Origin: a virus
Virus record (IMG/VR): IMGVR_UViG_3300006051_000001
Location: 22,982 to 86,981 of that record
Strand: one strand, 5' to 3'
DNA length: 64,000 nt
Shown here: in pieces, positions 4,504 through 54,075 of the stretch
Layout of the letters: every line of letters begins with the position of its first letter
Numbering within the stretch: position 1 is the first letter of the stretch
Program-made: the position numbers and the translations under genes
The notes under the pieces: generated by a model
What the model saw: only the letters and a program-made list of their open reading frames with translations
What the model was told of the DNA's origin: nothing
The model's database searches: none

Positions 4504-6684
4504 ATGAATCCATTTGATCCAACCGATCATTTACCTCAAGAGCGCTACACCATTCCGCCGGAGATGGTTCCGATCAGTGGTTTGAACTCTCAATTCAAAT
4601 GTGTCTCTGGTGCCCGTCAGGCAATGTTCACCGGTAACCTGTCCCAAGTATTGATCGTGGATGGCCGTACCCGTAAACGCCAGCAGACTGGGTTGGAACG
4701 TGAGATTGCCAAAGCTACATTTAACCATCAGTTTCCTCGTGAAGCTGTGGTACTGGCAATCATCCCCCGCTTTACATCCCGTAACTTCGGCGATAAGTTC
4801 CAGATCAACCCGTTCGATCTGGTGATCTACGAGGATTGGGAAACGAAAGAACTGGACGTGGTTGAACTCAGCAAGTTTCACGTAATGCACCAGCATTACG
4901 GGTTTGAGTTCGAGTACGATCAGGACGTCTACGACGCCATCACCAAAGGTAAGCGCTTCAAGGCAGGTACTGTAATTGCTCGTTCTCCGGCTGTAACGGA
5001 TGATGGCGACTACATGTACGGTCTGGAAACCAACGTCTGCATGATCTCTGATCCGGCAGGTACTGAAGACGGTGTAAAGATCAGTCAGAGTTATGCCAAG
5101 CGTATTCGCTCGACAGGCTTTGAAAGTCGGATTGCTCGCTTCGGCGGCAGCCATTACCCGATTAACTGGAACGGTAACCTGGAAGAGTACAAACCTATTC
5201 CAGACATCGGTGATTTCATCCAGTCAAACGGTCTGATCTGCGCTTCACGGCCTTTCGATCCAAAGTACGATCCAGTCTACATGACTCGTACTAAGCTGCT
5301 TAAACCGCAGTATGGGTTGGATACACCGCTGTACGGCGTACCTAACGCTCAGGTCGTAGACATCCGAGTCCTTCATAACGATAGGCTGTCTTCCCCGAAA
5401 CTACCTAAGGAAATGACTAAACAGTTCCTGAAGTACTACGAGGCTGACCAAGAGTTCTACACCAAGATCGTTAAGACGTGCCTCTGCCGGAAAGGTAACT
5501 TCCTGGCTGACGACGTTGCAATGTCTCCACGTCTGCGCATCCTCCTGTACGAAGCAATCGCACGTAGCGGTGAGCGTCTGCTGGAAGAAGGCATCTGGCC
5601 GAAGAGCAAAGCCGACCAACTGCGTGTTCGCACGAAGTATCGCGGTGAGATCTTGGATGAGTTCCGTGTGGAAATCATCTATCAGTACAAGACCTCTGTG
5701 GGCGAAGGCCCTAAGGTTACTGACCAATCTGGTGGTAAAGGCGTTACTTCGGCGGTTGCTCCAGACGAAGACATGCCTACTGACGAGAACGGCGTACGCG
5801 CCGACGTAGTGATCTTCTCGAACTCTACGGTAAACCGCCTGAACAACGGTCGTCAGCATACTCAGGTTATCGGCGCTGCTGGTCGTGACATCATCAAACG
5901 TGTACGTAAGTCCTACGGTCTGCCACCTGTTGGCGCGATCGACAAGGCTGAAGTCAAGCGTGTGGTGACGTCTCAGAACAACGTGGCTGTGACCATGAAG
6001 AACTTTGCGTACATCATCGGCTTCTATAAGCTGGTGGCTCCGGCGATGTACGAACGTCTTACTCGCAACGATATCATTCCGCAAGGTATTCACTTGCAGC
6101 ATGTAATCGAAGTGATCATGGACGGTGAAGTTGACCACGGTCTGTTCCTGCAACTCGCTTCCAGTGATGAGGTCTACATGGACCAAGTCATCCGGGAGAT
6201 CGAGGCTGGTCCGTACATGCCAGACTTGACTCCGGTTAAGTATCGGAATCTGGCTGGTGAGATGGTAACTACCAAGACCAAGATCCTGATCGGTCCTGAC
6301 TACTACCTGCCTTTGGAGAAGACGGCTACCGACGGTTCCGGTGTATCGTCCTCCAAGACAAACCACTTCGGCGTTACTGCCCGTCTGACGAATGCTGACA
6401 AGTATTCCAGCCCTGGCCGTGAAACCGTAACCAAATCTACCGGTGAGTCCGAAGCGCGTAACCACGCTCACGCCTACGGTGCTGAGCCCCTTGCTCACAT
6501 CATGGACTTGAACTACAACCCGGTGGTTCACAAAGAAGCCTGTATGACGATCCTCACTCACGAGACACCGACCAACATCGAATGTCTTGTTGACCGTGAG
6601 AAGTTTAAGCTTGGTGGACATCGTCCGCTGGCTTACGTTCGCCACATGATGGCCGTATCTGGTAAGAATATCTCCAGGGAGTAA
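4504..6684 (+). CDS. Non-virion RNA polymerase beta subunit part (phiKZ gp71-73-like), uninterrupted
   Basis: 726 aa; beta motifs SGARQAMFTGNLSQ, EDGVKISQS, KVTDQSGGKGV, RADVVIFSNSTVNRLN and GESEARN. Confidence 0.93.
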   Translation: MNPFDPTDHLPQERYTIPPEMVPISGLNSQFKCVSGARQAMFTGNLSQVLIVDGRTRKRQQTGLEREIAKATFNHQFPREAVVLAIIPRFTSRNFGDKFQINPFDLVIYEDWETKELDVVELSKFHVMHQHYGFEFEYDQDVYDAITKGKRFKAGTVIARSPAVTDDGDYMYGLETNVCMISDPAGTEDGVKISQSYAKRIRSTGFESRIARFGGSHYPINWNGNLEEYKPIPDIGDFIQSNGLICASRPFDPKYDPVYMTRTKLLKPQYGLDTPLYGVPNAQVVDIRVLHNDRLSSPKLPKEMTKQFLKYYEADQEFYTKIVKTCLCRKGNFLADDVAMSPRLRILLYEAIARSGERLLEEGIWPKSKADQLRVRTKYRGEILDEFRVEIIYQYKTSVGEGPKVTDQSGGKGVTSAVAPDEDMPTDENGVRADVVIFSNSTVNRLNNGRQHTQVIGAAGRDIIKRVRKSYGLPPVGAIDKAEVKRVVTSQNNVAVTMKNFAYIIGFYKLVAPAMYERLTRNDIIPQGIHLQHVIEVIMDGEVDHGLFLQLASSDEVYMDQVIREIEAGPYMPDLTPVKYRNLAGEMVTTKTKILIGPDYYLPLEKTATDGSGVSSSKTNHFGVTARLTNADKYSSPGRETVTKSTGESEARNHAHAYGAEPLAHIMDLNYNPVVHKEACMTILTHETPTNIECLVDREKFKLGGHRPLAYVRHMMAVSGKNISRE

Positions 6685-6715: not shown

Positions 6716-8695
6716 TTGGCAAGTCACCGTCGATTCAGAGCCCGTGATCTGTTCGAACAAATGGTACATCTTTGGCCGTGTAAAGAATACGAGGAGTTCA
6801 TCCTCGAGTTTGATGACGGCGATACGATGACCACCACAACAATCAATACCCAGATCTCCCGCAAGCTCTGGTTGCCACACGAGGTGTACAACAAACTCGG
6901 CATCTATAAACGTCACCACATCGGTAACGGTTCGATGTCCAATGAACGCATCCATGAAGTACAGGCTGCGATCACTGAAGACATGTACAACACGTACGGT
7001 GAGAAAGGCTTTAACCGTGAAGAGTTGTGGCGACACAACTATTACGGCACCAACCGTCTGTACAACGAATCGATCATCGAGTATGCGGCGTATGTTCGCG
7101 GCAGTAACTCGTTCGACTTCAGCCATCTGTACGAGTATCCGCCAATCCACAAGATCCGGACCGAATGTAAGCCTAACAAGCTATCAATCGAGAAGGCTTA
7201 CGATGCGGCGAAGTTGGTTCTGGAACGTGACCCTGCATTGGCACGTAACGTAATCATCTCTGACCTGCGGGCTGGTCTGCTCAAGATGGAGCAGTTGCTT
7301 CAGATCCTCATCGTGCGTGGCTACAACACCGACATCGATGGGCACGTATACAGCAAACCAATCATGGGCAACTACTTCGCAGGGATTCATGATCCAGCTG
7401 AAGCCATGATGGAATCCACACTGGCCGCTAAGGCTATCATCTTTACTGGTGCGCCGCTCGAACAAACCGAGTATGCAAACCGGAAGATGCAGTTCACTAC
7501 CCAGCAGGTTGACTTGCTGGTAATGGCTGACTGTGGATCGACTGAGTACGGAGAGATTGAGATCACCAAGTTCAGGTTCAAAGCCATGGACGGTCTCAAC
7601 TATCTCGATCCTGATACCAACAAGCTGAAACCCCTGCGGATGGCTGACACTCACCTGATCGGTGAGACACGCAAGTTCCGTCTGGCGTTCAACTGTAAGT
7701 ACCGGCATCACAACAACGTCTGCAAGATGTGCTACGGCTTGCTGGCGTATAACGTGCCGTTCGGTGCTAACATCGGCCACATCGCATCTACAATGACCCA
7801 ATCGGAAGTATCTCAGGCAGTGTTGAAGGTTAAGCACTCTGAGGCGTCTGCTTCTTCTGATCCGATCATCATTCAAGATGAAGAAAGACCGTACATCCTC
7901 CCAGCATCTGAAGGTCACCAGATTCGTCTGAACCCAAGGCTGGGCGTTAAGGGTATTCCGCTGATGCTTCGCGGTGGTTACTCTCAGGGTGTTCACAACG
8001 CATCGAAGCTGCCTGTACTGAAACGTAACGATCTGCGTGCTGGCGTAAACATCGCCAAGTTCAGTCAGTTCCGTGAAGTCAGCTTTGAGCTGCCTAGCGA
8101 GAACAAGCAGTCGAACCGGGTACACGTCACGGTATCCCGTGGCGCTCGCATGTCGAACCTGACTCGTGAGTTCCTGGACTACTTCCTGAAGAAAGGCTTC
8201 CGAATCGATGATGATGGTTATTATCGGATTGATCTGAAGGATTGGAACTTCGACCTGCCAGCCTTTGAAATGCCAAACCGTCACGGTAGCATGAAGGATC
8301 ACGCAGCAGTAGTGGAAGTAATGATCCGCTCTACTCGTGACTCTAACCAGCGTCACCTCGGCCGGTTGAAGCAACTCAAGGACTATGCTAACCCAACTGA
8401 AGCAATGTTGGATACGCATGAACTGATCGCGCTGAAGGTTCCTGTTCACTTCACCCACGTCGCTATTGTGTTGCTGTCTATGATGGTATCCAGTACGAAG
8501 TCCGGTGATTACAGGATTCCACCTCTGGGCGAACCTACACGGTTTGCTAAATACGATCACGTAATCAGTGGTCGTTCCATGGGTGCGTTCTTCGCCTATC
8601 AGGGTGGTCGTAACCTGCTAGATACACTTGAGCAGTACATGATGAACGAACGGGAACAACATCTGCTTGATCCACTGCTGATGCCCGGCTGGTAA
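6716..8695 (+). CDS. Non-virion RNA polymerase beta-prime C-terminal subunit (phiKZ gp74-like)
   Basis: TTG start with AGGAG SD; bridge-helix region KAIIFTGAPLEQTEYANRKM followed by DCGS; Zn site C...VCKMCYG; NIGHIASTMTQSEVSQAVLKVKH trigger-loop region. Confidence 0.93.
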   Translation: MASHRRFRARDLFEQMVHLWPCKEYEEFILEFDDGDTMTTTTINTQISRKLWLPHEVYNKLGIYKRHHIGNGSMSNERIHEVQAAITEDMYNTYGEKGFNREELWRHNYYGTNRLYNESIIEYAAYVRGSNSFDFSHLYEYPPIHKIRTECKPNKLSIEKAYDAAKLVLERDPALARNVIISDLRAGLLKMEQLLQILIVRGYNTDIDGHVYSKPIMGNYFAGIHDPAEAMMESTLAAKAIIFTGAPLEQTEYANRKMQFTTQQVDLLVMADCGSTEYGEIEITKFRFKAMDGLNYLDPDTNKLKPLRMADTHLIGETRKFRLAFNCKYRHHNNVCKMCYGLLAYNVPFGANIGHIASTMTQSEVSQAVLKVKHSEASASSDPIIIQDEERPYILPASEGHQIRLNPRLGVKGIPLMLRGGYSQGVHNASKLPVLKRNDLRAGVNIAKFSQFREVSFELPSENKQSNRVHVTVSRGARMSNLTREFLDYFLKKGFRIDDDGYYRIDLKDWNFDLPAFEMPNRHGSMKDHAAVVEVMIRSTRDSNQRHLGRLKQLKDYANPTEAMLDTHELIALKVPVHFTHVAIVLLSMMVSSTKSGDYRIPPLGEPTRFAKYDHVISGRSMGAFFAYQGGRNLLDTLEQYMMNEREQHLLDPLLMPGW

Positions 8696-21834: not shown

Positions 21835-23655
21835 ATGAAGAAGTTTCTCACACCAGCAGAGATCGATGTACATCTCGCACACATTCCAAAAGATCAAATT
21901 GTATCCCGTGAGTGCAAGCATGCCACTTACGTTCGTCACCGTGGTGGCGATCAGCAAGACTGTCTGGTGATCAAAGAGTGGGTCACCCTTAAAGACGGTT
22001 CACGGTTCCCACGCGTCAGGATGGTTGAGAACTACAAGCGTCCGTACTGGGTAACGAAAGAACCATTCCGTACTCACCCTGACAAGATTCAGTTCGAAGA
22101 GCTGAAGCGTCTGGACATGTTCCGTGTACCGCAGTGCAAACTGCGTCAAGACATCTGCTTCCGCATTCGTGGGCTGCAACCAAACAACCCAATGAAGGTG
22201 TTGGCTCGCAGTCCTTACTTGTACGGGCTCGACACTGGCCCTGAAGTCTTCATGAAGCAGAGCTACGCCGACAAGTGGCCCAATGCCTTCCAGCCGAACA
22301 GAGTGTCCGTAATCGACGCCGAGACCGACGTGAACGGTCTGCTGCACTCTAAGCTACAGTTGCCGATTCTTTGGTCATTGGTTAGCGATGATGAGATCGT
22401 CCTCTACGTGAACGATACGTGGGCGTTTGACATCGACAACTACGAAGAGCAGATCCACAAAGAATACCAATCGGTAATCGGACAGTGGGCTGCGGCCATC
22501 CGTAAGAAGATGACCAACAAGAAGACTGGCGAGTGTCCTGATTGGGTGGACATGATCGAGAAGATCCCAGTCCGCGTCGAGCGTCTGAAGAATGACTTCG
22601 ACATCACTAAGGGGATGGTCGATCGTCTGCATGAAACACAACCGGATCTGGTAACAGGCTGGAACGTATTCTTCGATGCTAAATGTATCGAGAACTCCGT
22701 AACCAACGCTGGCTACGATTTGGCTGACGTCATGTCTGATCCTCGTGTTCCTTACGAGTGGCGCGGTGCGTTGCTGACTGAAGGTCAGGCTGTTAAACGT
22801 ACGTCGTCTGGACGTGAGATGCGTCTTGATCCGCAAGAACGTTGGAACAAGGTACTCAACACAGCCTCATGGCGCATGCAGGACATGATGCAGCTGTATT
22901 GGCAGTTGCGTAAGGCCAAGGGTAAGGAATCTGGTGGTTACGGCTTAGACGCTGTTCTAGACCGTCAGTTGTCTGTGGGTAAGCTCAAGTACGATACCGA
23001 AGATACTTCGGTGCCGCCTGGGACACTTCACTGGCACATGGACATGCAGCGGAACTACAAGGTTCGCTACGGCGTGTACAACATCATCGACTCCTTGGCA
23101 GTTTGGGCGCTCGATAAGAAGAACCAAGACTTGAGTTCTCAGATCTCATCTCTTGCAGGTCCACTGGATTACTCCAACTTCAACTCGCAGCCGAAGATCA
23201 ACGTCACTGACATGCTCTTCAGCACGATCAAGAAGCTGGGCAAAGTAATCTGCTCCACATCTGATCAAATGGCCGATGAGAACGATGCGCTGCTCTCCGG
23301 TAAGGATGGGTGGATCGTAACCTTCCCAAGCCACATTGTTGCGGATACGGGACTGTTCTTATTTGAGGACATGCCTGAGATCCGATCAATGATCCACATG
23401 TTCAACGCGGATGCTGACGTGGAAACTACGTATCCGATTTCTGAGATCATTCAGAACCTCTCCAGTGAGACGACAATTGCAGAACCTTGTCGTGTGATGG
23501 GTGTAGGGCGTGAAGCACTGCGTCTTGCAAGTATCAACCTTACTGGTGGTCGTGTGAACTCGGTCGAGATTGTGGAATCCATCTGTAAGATGCCGATGTT
23601 CGATGAATGGCTGGAACAAGCTACCATTGACATCGAAGAGATCAAAGCAGCATAA
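21835..23655 (+). CDS. Split family-B DNA polymerase N-terminal subunit: 3'-5' exonuclease plus palm motif A (phiKZ gp82-like)
   Basis: ExoI IDAET, ExoII GWNVFFD, ExoIII YNIID, motif A DVETTYP..I..NLSSET; no motif B or C. GAGG SD favours ATG 21835 over 21802. Confidence 0.85.
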   Translation: MKKFLTPAEIDVHLAHIPKDQIVSRECKHATYVRHRGGDQQDCLVIKEWVTLKDGSRFPRVRMVENYKRPYWVTKEPFRTHPDKIQFEELKRLDMFRVPQCKLRQDICFRIRGLQPNNPMKVLARSPYLYGLDTGPEVFMKQSYADKWPNAFQPNRVSVIDAETDVNGLLHSKLQLPILWSLVSDDEIVLYVNDTWAFDIDNYEEQIHKEYQSVIGQWAAAIRKKMTNKKTGECPDWVDMIEKIPVRVERLKNDFDITKGMVDRLHETQPDLVTGWNVFFDAKCIENSVTNAGYDLADVMSDPRVPYEWRGALLTEGQAVKRTSSGREMRLDPQERWNKVLNTASWRMQDMMQLYWQLRKAKGKESGGYGLDAVLDRQLSVGKLKYDTEDTSVPPGTLHWHMDMQRNYKVRYGVYNIIDSLAVWALDKKNQDLSSQISSLAGPLDYSNFNSQPKINVTDMLFSTIKKLGKVICSTSDQMADENDALLSGKDGWIVTFPSHIVADTGLFLFEDMPEIRSMIHMFNADADVETTYPISEIIQNLSSETTIAEPCRVMGVGREALRLASINLTGGRVNSVEIVESICKMPMFDEWLEQATIDIEEIKAA

Positions 23656-50926: not shown

Positions 50927-52579
50927 ATGTCTTTGAATGAAGTAGATCGTATCCAACACAACCTCTATCAAACACTGATGGAATCCGGTTACCTTAAAGG
51001 CGACCGTACTGGCGTGGGCACTCTCATGCTGCCTGGCCTTGTAATGGACTACGACATCAGCGACAAGAAGATCCCGCTGCCGTCGACCAAAGAAGTCTTC
51101 AACAAGTCGTGGGGCTGGGAGAACCTGATGTTCATCTCGGGTTCCAGCAACCTGAAGCTTCTGAAAGACAACAACGTCTCAATCTGGGACAACTGGTTCA
51201 TTCCGGGCACTGCCGTCTACGACGAACCGAAGCGTGTTGTGTATTCGCTCGATGAGCGTATTCAGGTGGCTGTTGATGCCGGTCATCGCGACATCATCAT
51301 CCAACACATCCTCGAGTACAAGAAGTTCAACGGCAGCATCGGCAGTTACGCGGTTGTTGTGCAGGATGCCGATGGCAATCTGGTCGAATACTTCAACCGC
51401 CCTAAAGCGTATCTCGATGCACTGTGGACCTTCCTCGGTAATCTCGGTATTCCTGAGTACAACGAGAACGGTGGTGGTAAGCCTGTCGGTATCCAGACTC
51501 GACTGAAGCGTGTTGCGAAGAACATGACCCTCTGCTGGCACGAGATCAACAAGATCGTCTTCAACTTCGGTGATGTAGTCGCCCTAGGTGATAAGCCGTA
51601 CAAGGTCGTCGTCTTCCACAAAGGTAAGTTTGTTGACGTCGAGATCAGTTCGACTAAAGTCACCGCTATCAACAAGATCATGGACAACTTCGATATTCCG
51701 AAGTACCCACTTCTGGAAGCTGATATCGGTCAAGGCAGCTACGGCGTGCAATGGCGCCGTTGGCAGGATACTCAGATCGTCAGCAGCGATCAGATCGACG
51801 AGTACGTCGCGCAAGGTTACGAGATCGCCGGTAACCTGACCTCTGATAGTGCGTGGGGTCGTGGGATGCCAGGACCTGTCAAGATGTATCACGTCATGCA
51901 CCGCGAGATCGACCAGTTGCAGAACTGCATCGACATGCTGCGCAAGAACCCTGACGATCGCCGTATGATCGTTAACGCATGGAACCCAGGTCGTACATGG
52001 CAAGCTGCTTTACCTCCATGCCATCTGTACTTCCAGTTCATCAGCTATCCGAAGAAAGCTGGCCAGATCCTCGATGACCTCGAGAAAGCTGGCATGCTGC
52101 AAAGTCTACGCCAAGCAATCAGCGAAGACTACGGCACTCACGTAATCGAGACTGTTCAGTCCTTCGAGAAGAAGTACGAAGAAGATGAAGAGTTCTACGG
52201 TTATGTGAAGCGTTTCTGCGAACACGCTGTAGTTGGCGTTAATCCACGCCTTATCTCGACGCTGATGGTAATGCGCAGCAACGACTACGCTTTGGGTATG
52301 CCGTTCAACGTAGCGCAGTATGCGGCCTTGACGCACATGGTTGCACACGTCACCGGCCATGACACTGACCGTCTGATCATTGTAGGTGGTGATTGCCACC
52401 TGTACGTGAATCAGCTGGAAGGTATCACCAAGCAGTTGGCTCGTGAGTCCAGCGAAGATAGTGATCCTCGGTTCATTATCAAACGCAAGATTGCCGAGAT
52501 TGATGACTTCACTTTCGAGGACTTCAAGATCGAGGGCTACAAACCTCAGCCAAACATCCCAATGCCTGTTGCGGTGTAA
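50927..52579 (+). CDS. thyA: Thymidylate synthase with large insertions
   Basis: DRTGVGT, YGVQWRRW, ALPPCHLYFQF, MRSND, PFN and GDCHLY motifs. Confidence 0.95.
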   Translation: MSLNEVDRIQHNLYQTLMESGYLKGDRTGVGTLMLPGLVMDYDISDKKIPLPSTKEVFNKSWGWENLMFISGSSNLKLLKDNNVSIWDNWFIPGTAVYDEPKRVVYSLDERIQVAVDAGHRDIIIQHILEYKKFNGSIGSYAVVVQDADGNLVEYFNRPKAYLDALWTFLGNLGIPEYNENGGGKPVGIQTRLKRVAKNMTLCWHEINKIVFNFGDVVALGDKPYKVVVFHKGKFVDVEISSTKVTAINKIMDNFDIPKYPLLEADIGQGSYGVQWRRWQDTQIVSSDQIDEYVAQGYEIAGNLTSDSAWGRGMPGPVKMYHVMHREIDQLQNCIDMLRKNPDDRRMIVNAWNPGRTWQAALPPCHLYFQFISYPKKAGQILDDLEKAGMLQSLRQAISEDYGTHVIETVQSFEKKYEEDEEFYGYVKRFCEHAVVGVNPRLISTLMVMRSNDYALGMPFNVAQYAALTHMVAHVTGHDTDRLIIVGGDCHLYVNQLEGITKQLARESSEDSDPRFIIKRKIAEIDDFTFEDFKIEGYKPQPNIPMPVAV

Positions 52580-52584
52580 CGGCC

Positions 52585-52962
52585 ATGATCCATTATCGTG
52601 AGTATTGGCCAGCGTTTATAGATATCGCTAGAGCGCCCATTGAGGGAGATGTTGAAACTCTCGATGACGTACTGGACATTGCTTTCATCAGGGAACGTAC
52701 GGTACGGGGTGAGGTCACCTGTAAGTACGCCTTGAGTCCACACGGCACTCATGGGCATTTGTTGCGCGAGTACAACAAGGATGAGTGGTGGGTATGCGCC
52801 ACTCTCTCGTCTGATGTAGATCTCGTTCCAACTGACAAGATCCCGCTCTGGGTAGCTCCTCCCAAGGTAACTATCCCGATCGAACCACCTAAGGAACTAG
52901 GACCTCCTGTTCCTCTGGATGATCTCTTCGCAAGCGGTGTCGTTAAACGGACCGTTCGTTGA
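52585..52962 (+). CDS. Hypothetical protein with Pro-rich C-terminus
   Basis: 125 aa. Confidence 0.65.
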   Translation: MIHYREYWPAFIDIARAPIEGDVETLDDVLDIAFIRERTVRGEVTCKYALSPHGTHGHLLREYNKDEWWVCATLSSDVDLVPTDKIPLWVAPPKVTIPIEPPKELGPPVPLDDLFASGVVKRTVR

Positions 52963-53153
52963 GCGGTAAGGCGCCGCATCCAATCGATGACCCTGAGATA
53001 AGGTTTAAAGCCAAACTCTTAGGGTTCACCGATGAAGCTCTCGAATCCATACGCGACTCACAACTGAAAGCCTGTCTAGCGTGCCAGTTAGTCGGGAAGA
53101 AGAAGTGTGTTCGCGTATGTCAAGCGATGCGGAATAGGAATGAACTCGAATGA
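52959..53153 (+). CDS. Small Cys-rich hypothetical protein
   Basis: CLAC...CVRVC; overlaps both neighbours. Confidence 0.55.
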   Translation: MSGKAPHPIDDPEIRFKAKLLGFTDEALESIRDSQLKACLACQLVGKKKCVRVCQAMRNRNELE

Positions 53154-53989
53154 ACCAACAACCGTTTACCCTTGACGGAATGGCTTTCTATAAACTCTGG
53201 AGAGAGAAACGCGATCAAGGCGCTCCATCGTACACACTCGACTCTATCACTAACTTCGCCCAACCAGGTAAGGTTGAGTATAAGCTAGACTACGAGAACC
53301 TAGAGAAACATAAAGCTGACTACAGCGCCTACCATGAAGCAGATGCTGAAATAACTGAACGTGCTGCTAGGTTCCGTGAAACAAACCCCAACGCAACATT
53401 CATCGAAGCACTCACCCATTTACTACCCGGAGTAAGATTCATGACCAAAGAAACATTTCAATCACCAAAACCAAAAGACATCATCGACCTGTCGGACGAG
53501 TTCCGGATGACCCTGATCCCAAACTCGGATGAAATCCCGGTGGCTCACGTAGCCACCATCACCACCATCGAAGAACTGTGCGAAGATCGTACAGATGTCC
53601 TGAACGTCTTCCCAGTTCAGGCTGCCTTCACTATCGACAAACGCCTTGACGGCGAGTGGGTTCAGTTGCAAGAAGCTGACTTCACGGAAACCATGTACGG
53701 CACCCTGAAACCGTTGATCGAAGCTGAGCATCGCCGTGGCTGTGAAGCTCACGGCACTGCGTTCGATCAGCGCATGACCCCTGAATACGTCCACGTCCCA
53801 ATCATCGGCCACCGCAAACATGCGGCTGAACTGATGGCGAGTCTGTCCAACAACCGTGGCAATGTCGGCGGTCACCTCAGCGTGCAGCTCGATCCAAACG
53901 ATCCAGATCCACTGATGTCCAAGAAGGCTCAGATCTTCACTGACGCGCCAATTGAACAAACCGAATACCCGGCGAAGCCAGCCGAGTAA
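53150..53989 (+). CDS. Chimeric protein: PolB exonuclease fragment, unknown domain, RNAP bridge-helix peptide
   Basis: Matches to 22882-23091 and 7430-7474 within this window; internal GGAG SD with in-frame ATG at 53441. Confidence 0.7.
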   Translation: MNQQPFTLDGMAFYKLWREKRDQGAPSYTLDSITNFAQPGKVEYKLDYENLEKHKADYSAYHEADAEITERAARFRETNPNATFIEALTHLLPGVRFMTKETFQSPKPKDIIDLSDEFRMTLIPNSDEIPVAHVATITTIEELCEDRTDVLNVFPVQAAFTIDKRLDGEWVQLQEADFTETMYGTLKPLIEAEHRRGCEAHGTAFDQRMTPEYVHVPIIGHRKHAAELMASLSNNRGNVGGHLSVQLDPNDPDPLMSKKAQIFTDAPIEQTEYPAKPAE

Positions 53990-54001
53990 TCACATCGAGT
54001 G

Positions 54002-54021
54002 CGCCGGGGAATTCCCCGGCG
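54002..54021 (+). terminator. GC hairpin
   Basis: CGCCGGGG-AATT-CCCCGGCG with a T-tract about 12 nt downstream. Confidence 0.65.
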
Positions 54022-54075
54022 TAACTATCAACCTTTTTTGCTTACCCTATAGAACCAATTTCTTATCGGAGCTTC

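Follow-up and report, generated by a model that had tools for sequence, protein, structure and literature searches.

A conserved bridge-helix-like peptide on the C-terminal tail of an accessory protein in soil phiKZ-like jumbo phages

The E. coli SSB and T7 gp2.5 proteins combine a folded core, a variable linker and a conserved terminal peptide. Nun of phage HK022 targets the host RNA polymerase (RNAP), into which it reaches with a C-terminal segment; influenza NS1, with its histone-H3-like tail, is an instance of viral short-linear-motif mimicry. Here we analyse a stretch of 64,000 nucleotides (the window; positions 22,982 to 86,981 of IMG/VR record IMGVR_UViG_3300006051_000001), part of a 188-kb, ~75% complete fragment of an uncultured jumbo phage that carries split RNAP genes of the phiKZ type. 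A protein of 279 amino acids (aa) encoded in the window bears near its C-terminus a 15-residue peptide that resembles the bridge helix of the phage's own RNAP. In a literature search we met no earlier account of a phage accessory protein with a peptide resembling the bridge helix.

The architecture of the 279-aa protein places its tail among conserved docking tips on flexible tails and among cases of viral motif mimicry. With the docking tails of SSB and T7 gp2.5 it shares a three-part layout, in which a conserved tip lies behind a disordered linker of variable length. Their tips are acidic-hydrophobic and bind replication partners, whereas the tip studied here resembles the phage's own polymerase, and there is no sequence relation between them. 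NS1 is alike in that a short peptide at its C-terminus mimics part of another protein and so captures that protein's partners; the known cases of this type imitate host proteins, whereas this tail would imitate the virus's own enzyme, and in a bacteriophage. Nun and the linker of phiKZ gp68 are likewise unstructured phage-protein segments potentially in the region of the active-site cleft. Nun, however, is unlike any polymerase element and gp68 is an integral subunit. The gp68 linker, a disordered segment entering the cleft of the phiKZ non-virion RNAP (nvRNAP), provides a precedent within the same enzyme (PMC7618050).

The peptide, KAQIFTDAPIEQTEY, occupies residues 259-273 (53924..53968, + strand) of the open reading frame (ORF) at 53150-53989 and ends six residues before its C-terminus. 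Its counterpart, KAIIFTGAPLEQTEY, comprises residues 239-253 (7430..7474, +) of the nvRNAP subunit beta'C, a 659-aa homologue of phiKZ gp74 (6716..8695, +; PDB 7ogp_D, E 9e-74, residues 5-656; phrog_3015, E 1.8e-151). The ORF adjoining beta'C (4504-6684) encodes a beta-like subunit according to Pfam and PHROG searches, and the 279-aa ORF sits 46 kb downstream of beta'C. Twelve of the 15 residues and 34 of the 45 nucleotides are identical: eight codons are the same, four differ synonymously (F, P, E and Y), and three carry replacements (Q/I, D/G and I/L, tail/helix). An earlier description of this DNA, made from its letters alone (the sequence-only reading), had reported the match; its coordinates, peptides, identity counts and four synonymous differences were exact.

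That description had also aligned the beta' segment with the bridge helix, and the comparison with phiKZ confirms the assignment. The bridge helix of gp74 is L242-Y279 (PMC8287921; PDB 7OGP/7OGR). Since the HMMER alignment of the window's beta'C with gp74 is ungapped across this region with an offset of +15, beta'C residues 239-253 correspond to gp74 254-268; these lie inside L242-Y279, and thus the tail resembles the centre of the helix, not just its vicinity. The transferred helix spans beta'C residues 227-264 (7394..7507, +). The AR9 homologue aligns at the bridge-helix site with ...NSGYLTRK..., which we take to be the bacterial bridge-helix signature.

The likeness is confined to these central residues, of which 12-13 of 15 are identical to the tail. 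The complete helix of ~38 residues is not present, the flanks being unrelated, and no other beta' similarity was found in the 279-aa protein: phmmer with beta'C gave an E of only 0.02, from a segment of 15-18 residues. Unlike the helix, the tail is C-terminal, predicted to be disordered and solvent-exposed, and marked by two consistent polar replacements. The tail consensus, KAKIFTDAPLEQTEY, is identical to the helix at 13 of 15 positions and retains every position that is invariant (K239, P247 and E252) or nearly invariant (L248, T251 and Y253) among 45 beta'C homologues. Its consistent replacements, I to K/Q and G to D, both raise polarity, which would fit a solvent-exposed imitation of a buried helix. 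The 15 residues of the helix itself are unchanged among relatives whose beta'C is as low as ~63% identical. In G001, a complete 254-kb IMG/VR genome with a beta'C 97% identical to that of the window, as in every near relative, the helix is the same, so that co-variation of tail and helix across phages is uninformative.

Chance resemblance was assessed by an ungapped all-versus-all comparison of the 231 non-overlapping ORFs (57.6 k residues) of the 188-kb genome, plus shuffled proteomes. With PAM30, a matrix suited to short, high-identity matches, the match scores 80, the highest value in the proteome apart from that of one paralogue pair, and none of 50 shuffles rose above 71 (Gumbel fit, P ~1e-3). 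When six homologous tails were combined into a profile, its best match was the bridge helix (E 2.9e-8); the runner-up stood at E 1, and the reversed proteome gave no match. The tail-bearing genomes contain exactly two copies of the motif each, helix and tail. Judged by these comparisons the resemblance is real; we consider pure coincidence an improbable, though not negligible, source of the match.

Soil and rhizosphere metagenomes yielded homologues in sequence searches and in two scans with degenerate DNA patterns. The tail-bearing relatives are P0001/L003/L012, L014, L011, L015 (from G001) and P0003/L001. Six distinct homologues keep K[AST][KQ]IFTD[AST]P[LI]EQ[TS]EY, in which 10 of 15 positions never vary. 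From core to motif, the linker measures ~24 residues in the window, P0001 and L014, ~10 in L011 and 0 in L015 and P0003, and the residues after the motif read PAKPAE, QAKPAE, QAKSAE or KQGDK. Soil contigs, which are short fragments, break off or diverge within the linker, and their alignment resumes at the motif. In the aligned sequences the motif is a conserved island between flanks that vary in length and composition. Nei-Gojobori comparisons among the tails give pS of 0.32-0.76 versus pN of 0.03-0.11, values similar to those of the folded core; synonymous differences are frequent, whereas the few replacements are conservative. By this measure the motif is under purifying selection at the protein level. 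The sequence-only reading had deduced selection on the peptide from the four synonymous codons of tail and helix, which alone are too weak to carry it; the six homologous tails bear the deduction out.

The same pattern makes it unlikely that the tail is a functionless extension, formed when illegitimate recombination or repair added a few dozen bases of beta'C to the gene's 3' end. Phage genomes do contain short ectopic patches, and the motif has been lost in one homologue. A relic should, however, have decayed as the linker did, whereas the peptide is kept while synonymous sites are saturated, and it persists through repeated linker insertions and deletions in six lineages. We regard an origin as a neutral relic as very improbable.

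The peptide stands at the end of a composite protein. An N-terminal region of low-confidence fold (residues 1-97; 53150..53440, +; pLDDT, the confidence score of the AlphaFold2 (AF2) model, mostly <50) is followed by a core domain (residues 98-232; 53441..53845, +; confident alpha/beta model over residues 110-232), a variable linker predicted to be disordered (residues 233-258; 53846..53923, +; pLDDT <50), the motif, and the last six residues, PAKPAE, with the stop codon (53969..53989, +), which vary among homologues. Beside the confident core, residues 234-246 and 257-279 are predicted with pLDDT <50 and no secondary structure, and the model places no helix at the tail motif. Because the tail is predicted to be disordered, it is best described as a short linear motif, and a lineage-specific one. 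The model suggests a unit made of a folded core, a variable leash and a conserved tip.

No Pfam or PHROG family was found for the 279-aa protein and no PDB sequence match at E up to 10, and its ESM Atlas features gave no usable match. The core's only structural relative is an uncharacterised 133-aa protein of Pseudomonas phage Noxifer (A0A1Y0T3F0; BFVD, E 2e-7, probability 1.00, TM 0.69 by target, 124 aligned columns). Foldseek searches of PDB, AFDB clusters and VIA wide gave nothing above Z 5.8, generic alpha/beta sandwiches only; a fold match to T7 Gp2 (Z 3.5) stands among hundreds of equal or better unrelated rows, within noise. Distant homologues (P0005-P0008; phmmer E 3e-19 to 4e-6) consist of the ~130-aa core alone, as a stand-alone protein. 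The Noxifer protein and P0005-P0008 belong to the same fold or sequence family as residues 98-232 and are without the N-terminal region, the linker and the bridge-helix-like tail. The N-terminal region (53150-53440) was considered as a fragment of a PolB exonuclease and rejected, since in the all-versus-all comparison its best scores against the polymerase region were 30-34, none above background.

The core begins at an internal ATG (53441) preceded by GGAG. The ORF is fused in the window, L003 and L014, whereas in L001, L004, L011 and L015 the N-terminal part lies in a different frame and forms an ORF of its own. The split results from a difference of 1 nt, located between GGAG and the internal ATG (GGAGTAAGATTCATG versus GGAGTAACAATCCATG; window 53395-53455, L001 9703-10086, L015 about 1400-1990, and in L011 and L004). 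The C-terminal part probably has its own translation start in the window and relatives alike.

Our leading reading, which is tentative and rests on inferred mechanism and binding, is that the tail may act as a tethered competitor for whatever binds an exposed bridge helix. A conserved tail would have been added, in one lineage, to a small accessory protein with a core of ~130 aa; the folded core would hold the peptide on a flexible leash, and the peptide would compete for the surface normally occupied by the exposed bridge helix. The likeliest target would be the bridge-helix groove or the trigger-helix face of nvRNAP sub-assemblies without beta'C, or in which beta'C is not locked in, and the accessory protein would dock on the phage polymerase or modulate its assembly or activity. 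In favour of this reading stand the PAM30 and six-tail-profile results, the place of the match at the helix centre, the selection on the motif, the predicted disorder of the tail, its retention of the conserved helix positions and its more polar replacements. A stricter version, in which the leashed copy of the helix is a true self-mimic that occupies the bridge-helix site of an incomplete nvRNAP or pairs with its trigger helices, is rather unlikely; if true, it would represent a new kind of polymerase assembly factor or inhibitor that imitates an active-site element.

Should the tail work by resembling the helix, it would be, to our knowledge, the first short linear motif with which a virus imitates a catalytic element inside its own polymerase. 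It would also offer a natural peptide probe for the assembly or catalytic cycle of the split, alpha-less RNAPs of jumbo phages that form a nucleus, enzymes whose order of assembly is poorly understood. More modestly, the locus documents short-linear-motif evolution in phage accessory genes, with gain of a motif on a disordered tail, change of linker length, and a motif swap between near-identical genes.

Several results weigh against competition for a helix-binding surface, some from the comparison of tail with helix and some from the distribution of the gene. In the assembled enzyme the bridge helix is buried and 38 residues long, and a 15-residue peptide with a proline in its middle would be poorly suited to displacing or imitating it. 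The match is borderline with BLOSUM62: its score is 62, and a score of at least 60 arose in one of eight shuffled proteomes. Significance over shuffled proteomes, which the sequence-only reading had named as a test of its claim, therefore holds under PAM30 and is only borderline here; because the scoring matrix was picked after the match had been seen, a fair genome-wide p lies at ~1e-3 to 1e-1. At the DNA level, the residues shared by tail and helix have the same codon in 8 of 12 cases versus 5.3 expected from phage codon usage (P 0.09), and pS between the two is 0.64-0.92, which is saturated. Because of this saturation the nucleotides do not separate an old copy from convergence or chance. 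A recent DNA copy is unsupported by these values, and the earlier statement that the peptide had been copied finds no backing in the DNA. Most likely, the motif either derives from the phage's own beta'C helix or has converged on it.

These points bear directly on the main alternative, that the tail is a functional docking motif for an unrelated partner and that its likeness to the helix is chance or merely historical. The partner could be a protein of nucleotide metabolism or of replication whose gene lies in the vicinity, or the tail could bind within an oligomer of the 279-aa protein itself; in the historical variant, a captured helix fragment would later have been co-opted for a function independent of the likeness. 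The BLOSUM62 score reached by a shuffled proteome and the lack of a copying trace in the nucleotides both fit this explanation. So does the setting of the gene amid thymidylate synthase, DHFR and small unassigned genes, far from the polymerase genes, and so does its accessory nature, being often broken or absent while the polymerase is universal. Moreover, conservation of the tail indicates function only, not the partner. Against it, the PAM30 and identity statistics put the genome-wide chance near 1e-3, the six-tail profile matches nothing else in the proteome, and the tail retains all the most conserved helix positions. We consider a docking motif for an unrelated partner a serious possibility, if a somewhat doubtful one.

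The distribution of the gene supplies the remaining points against competition for a helix-binding surface. Four complete related jumbo-phage genomes share the bridge-helix sequence and were found to lack the gene in searches whose positive control worked, and the gene is split or frameshifted in several relatives. The close homologue P0002/L004 keeps the linker and carries a different terminal sequence. A frameshift behind this divergent tail was ruled out, as the motif occurs in no frame of the L004 DNA. Conservation in homologues, which the sequence-only reading had proposed to examine, thus extends to six of the seven tail-bearing homologues, with the tail of P0002 having drifted or been replaced. 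Since the gene is missing, split or tail-swapped while the helix is invariant across a wide clade, any role in the polymerase would be dispensable.

Further searches delimit the range of the protein. A syntenic distant homologue follows thymidylate synthase and a 124-aa gene at L010 3766-4288 (ENA NODE_6, 82.6 kb); it has a frameshift within the core domain and a different short tail, and two larger contigs carry the same protein. Decay or recoding of the gene seems to have occurred in the L010 lineage. An IMG/VR locus search with the protein and the alignment as queries returned one contig only, a word-index search with the tail region alone returned no match, and tblastn of the whole protein and of the cores P0005 and P0008 against 50,697 phage records returned none either. 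Pattern matches in L013 and in Eubacterium metagenome-assembled genomes (L028-L030) were rejected as unrelated short chance ORFs. In the sequences examined the tail is specific to a single, narrow lineage of phiKZ-like jumbo phages from soil and rhizosphere.

Such a patchy distribution would suit a counter-defence decoy at least equally well, with nothing else pointing there. The tail would then imitate the helix exposed on new, unassembled beta'C in the cytoplasm and titrate a host immune sensor, a protease or another factor, thereby protecting the polymerase subunit or preventing abortive infection. Along with the patchiness, the variable linker, the tail swap in P0002 and the split and fused forms fit an accessory gene in an arms race, and as the imitated epitope is invariant in the clade, a decoy would remain conserved. 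Host systems can sense short internal phage peptides, as the Lit protease does with the Gol peptide of T4. However, we know of no defence system that responds to the bridge helix of a phage RNAP, neither padloc nor any other evidence gives a defence-related signal, and the core domain has no link to counter-defence. A decoy is unlikely in our view; if the tail were one, it would imply that some host factor recognises phage polymerase in its unassembled state. The sequence-only reading had put forward both ideas, a mimic that binds RNAP assembly intermediates and a decoy for a host sensor, and both stand as candidates. Competition for whatever binds an exposed bridge helix remains the reading we favour.

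A second bridge-helix-like sequence was observed in G001. A 496-aa ORF (from locus position 1294 of L017, which is G001:C1:105372-108659) contains NADFDGN, resembling the catalytic motif of beta' with the last Asp replaced. Bridge-helix-like KALIMENKPLDESEYFNRK lies ~60 residues past NADFDGN and ~30 past an F-loop-like ...RGYATDINSD.... The remainder of this ORF has no polymerase similarity, and the ORF is possibly a compact beta' piece of a virion polymerase. The 75%-complete genome to which the window belongs does not include this region. A second beta'-like helix was also considered as the model of the tail and set aside, the G001 segment KALIMENKPLDESEY being identical at only 7 of 15 positions.

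The 279-aa ORF is preceded by a long thymidylate synthase gene and two small ORFs. The thymidylate synthase (50927-52579) has 550 aa, about twice the usual length, and is conserved in L001 and L010; its Pfam match falls in two stretches, which implies a large insertion. The 125-aa ORF that follows (window 52585-52962), between thymidylate synthase and a 64-aa ORF, is absent from the 94%-identical L003 (L003 1337-1532), a further sign of rapid gene turnover in this block. The 64-aa ORF (52959-53153) lies directly upstream of the 279-aa ORF and overlaps its start by 4 nt. It is near-identical across L001, L003, L011, L014 and L015, in which its neighbours are ~70-90% identical. Its product contains the pattern CxxC-x7-CxxxC and, in the stretch KAKLLGFTDEALE, a weak likeness to the tail motif (E 0.7). 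The 64-aa protein may be a partner of the 279-aa protein.

Downstream, 12 nt past the stop codon, lies a GC-rich hairpin with an 8-bp stem and a 4-nt loop (54002..54021, +), followed by conserved TAACTATCAACCTTTTTTGC, which ends in TTTTTT (54034-54039). The hairpin was not called by a simple terminator scan, owing to the 12 nt that separate its stem from the T run. The stem is identical in the window, L015, L001 and L014, whereas the loop differs (AATT, CTTT, AAAG, GTTT). The hairpin probably marks where transcripts end or are processed, the 12-nt spacer before the T run being unusual.
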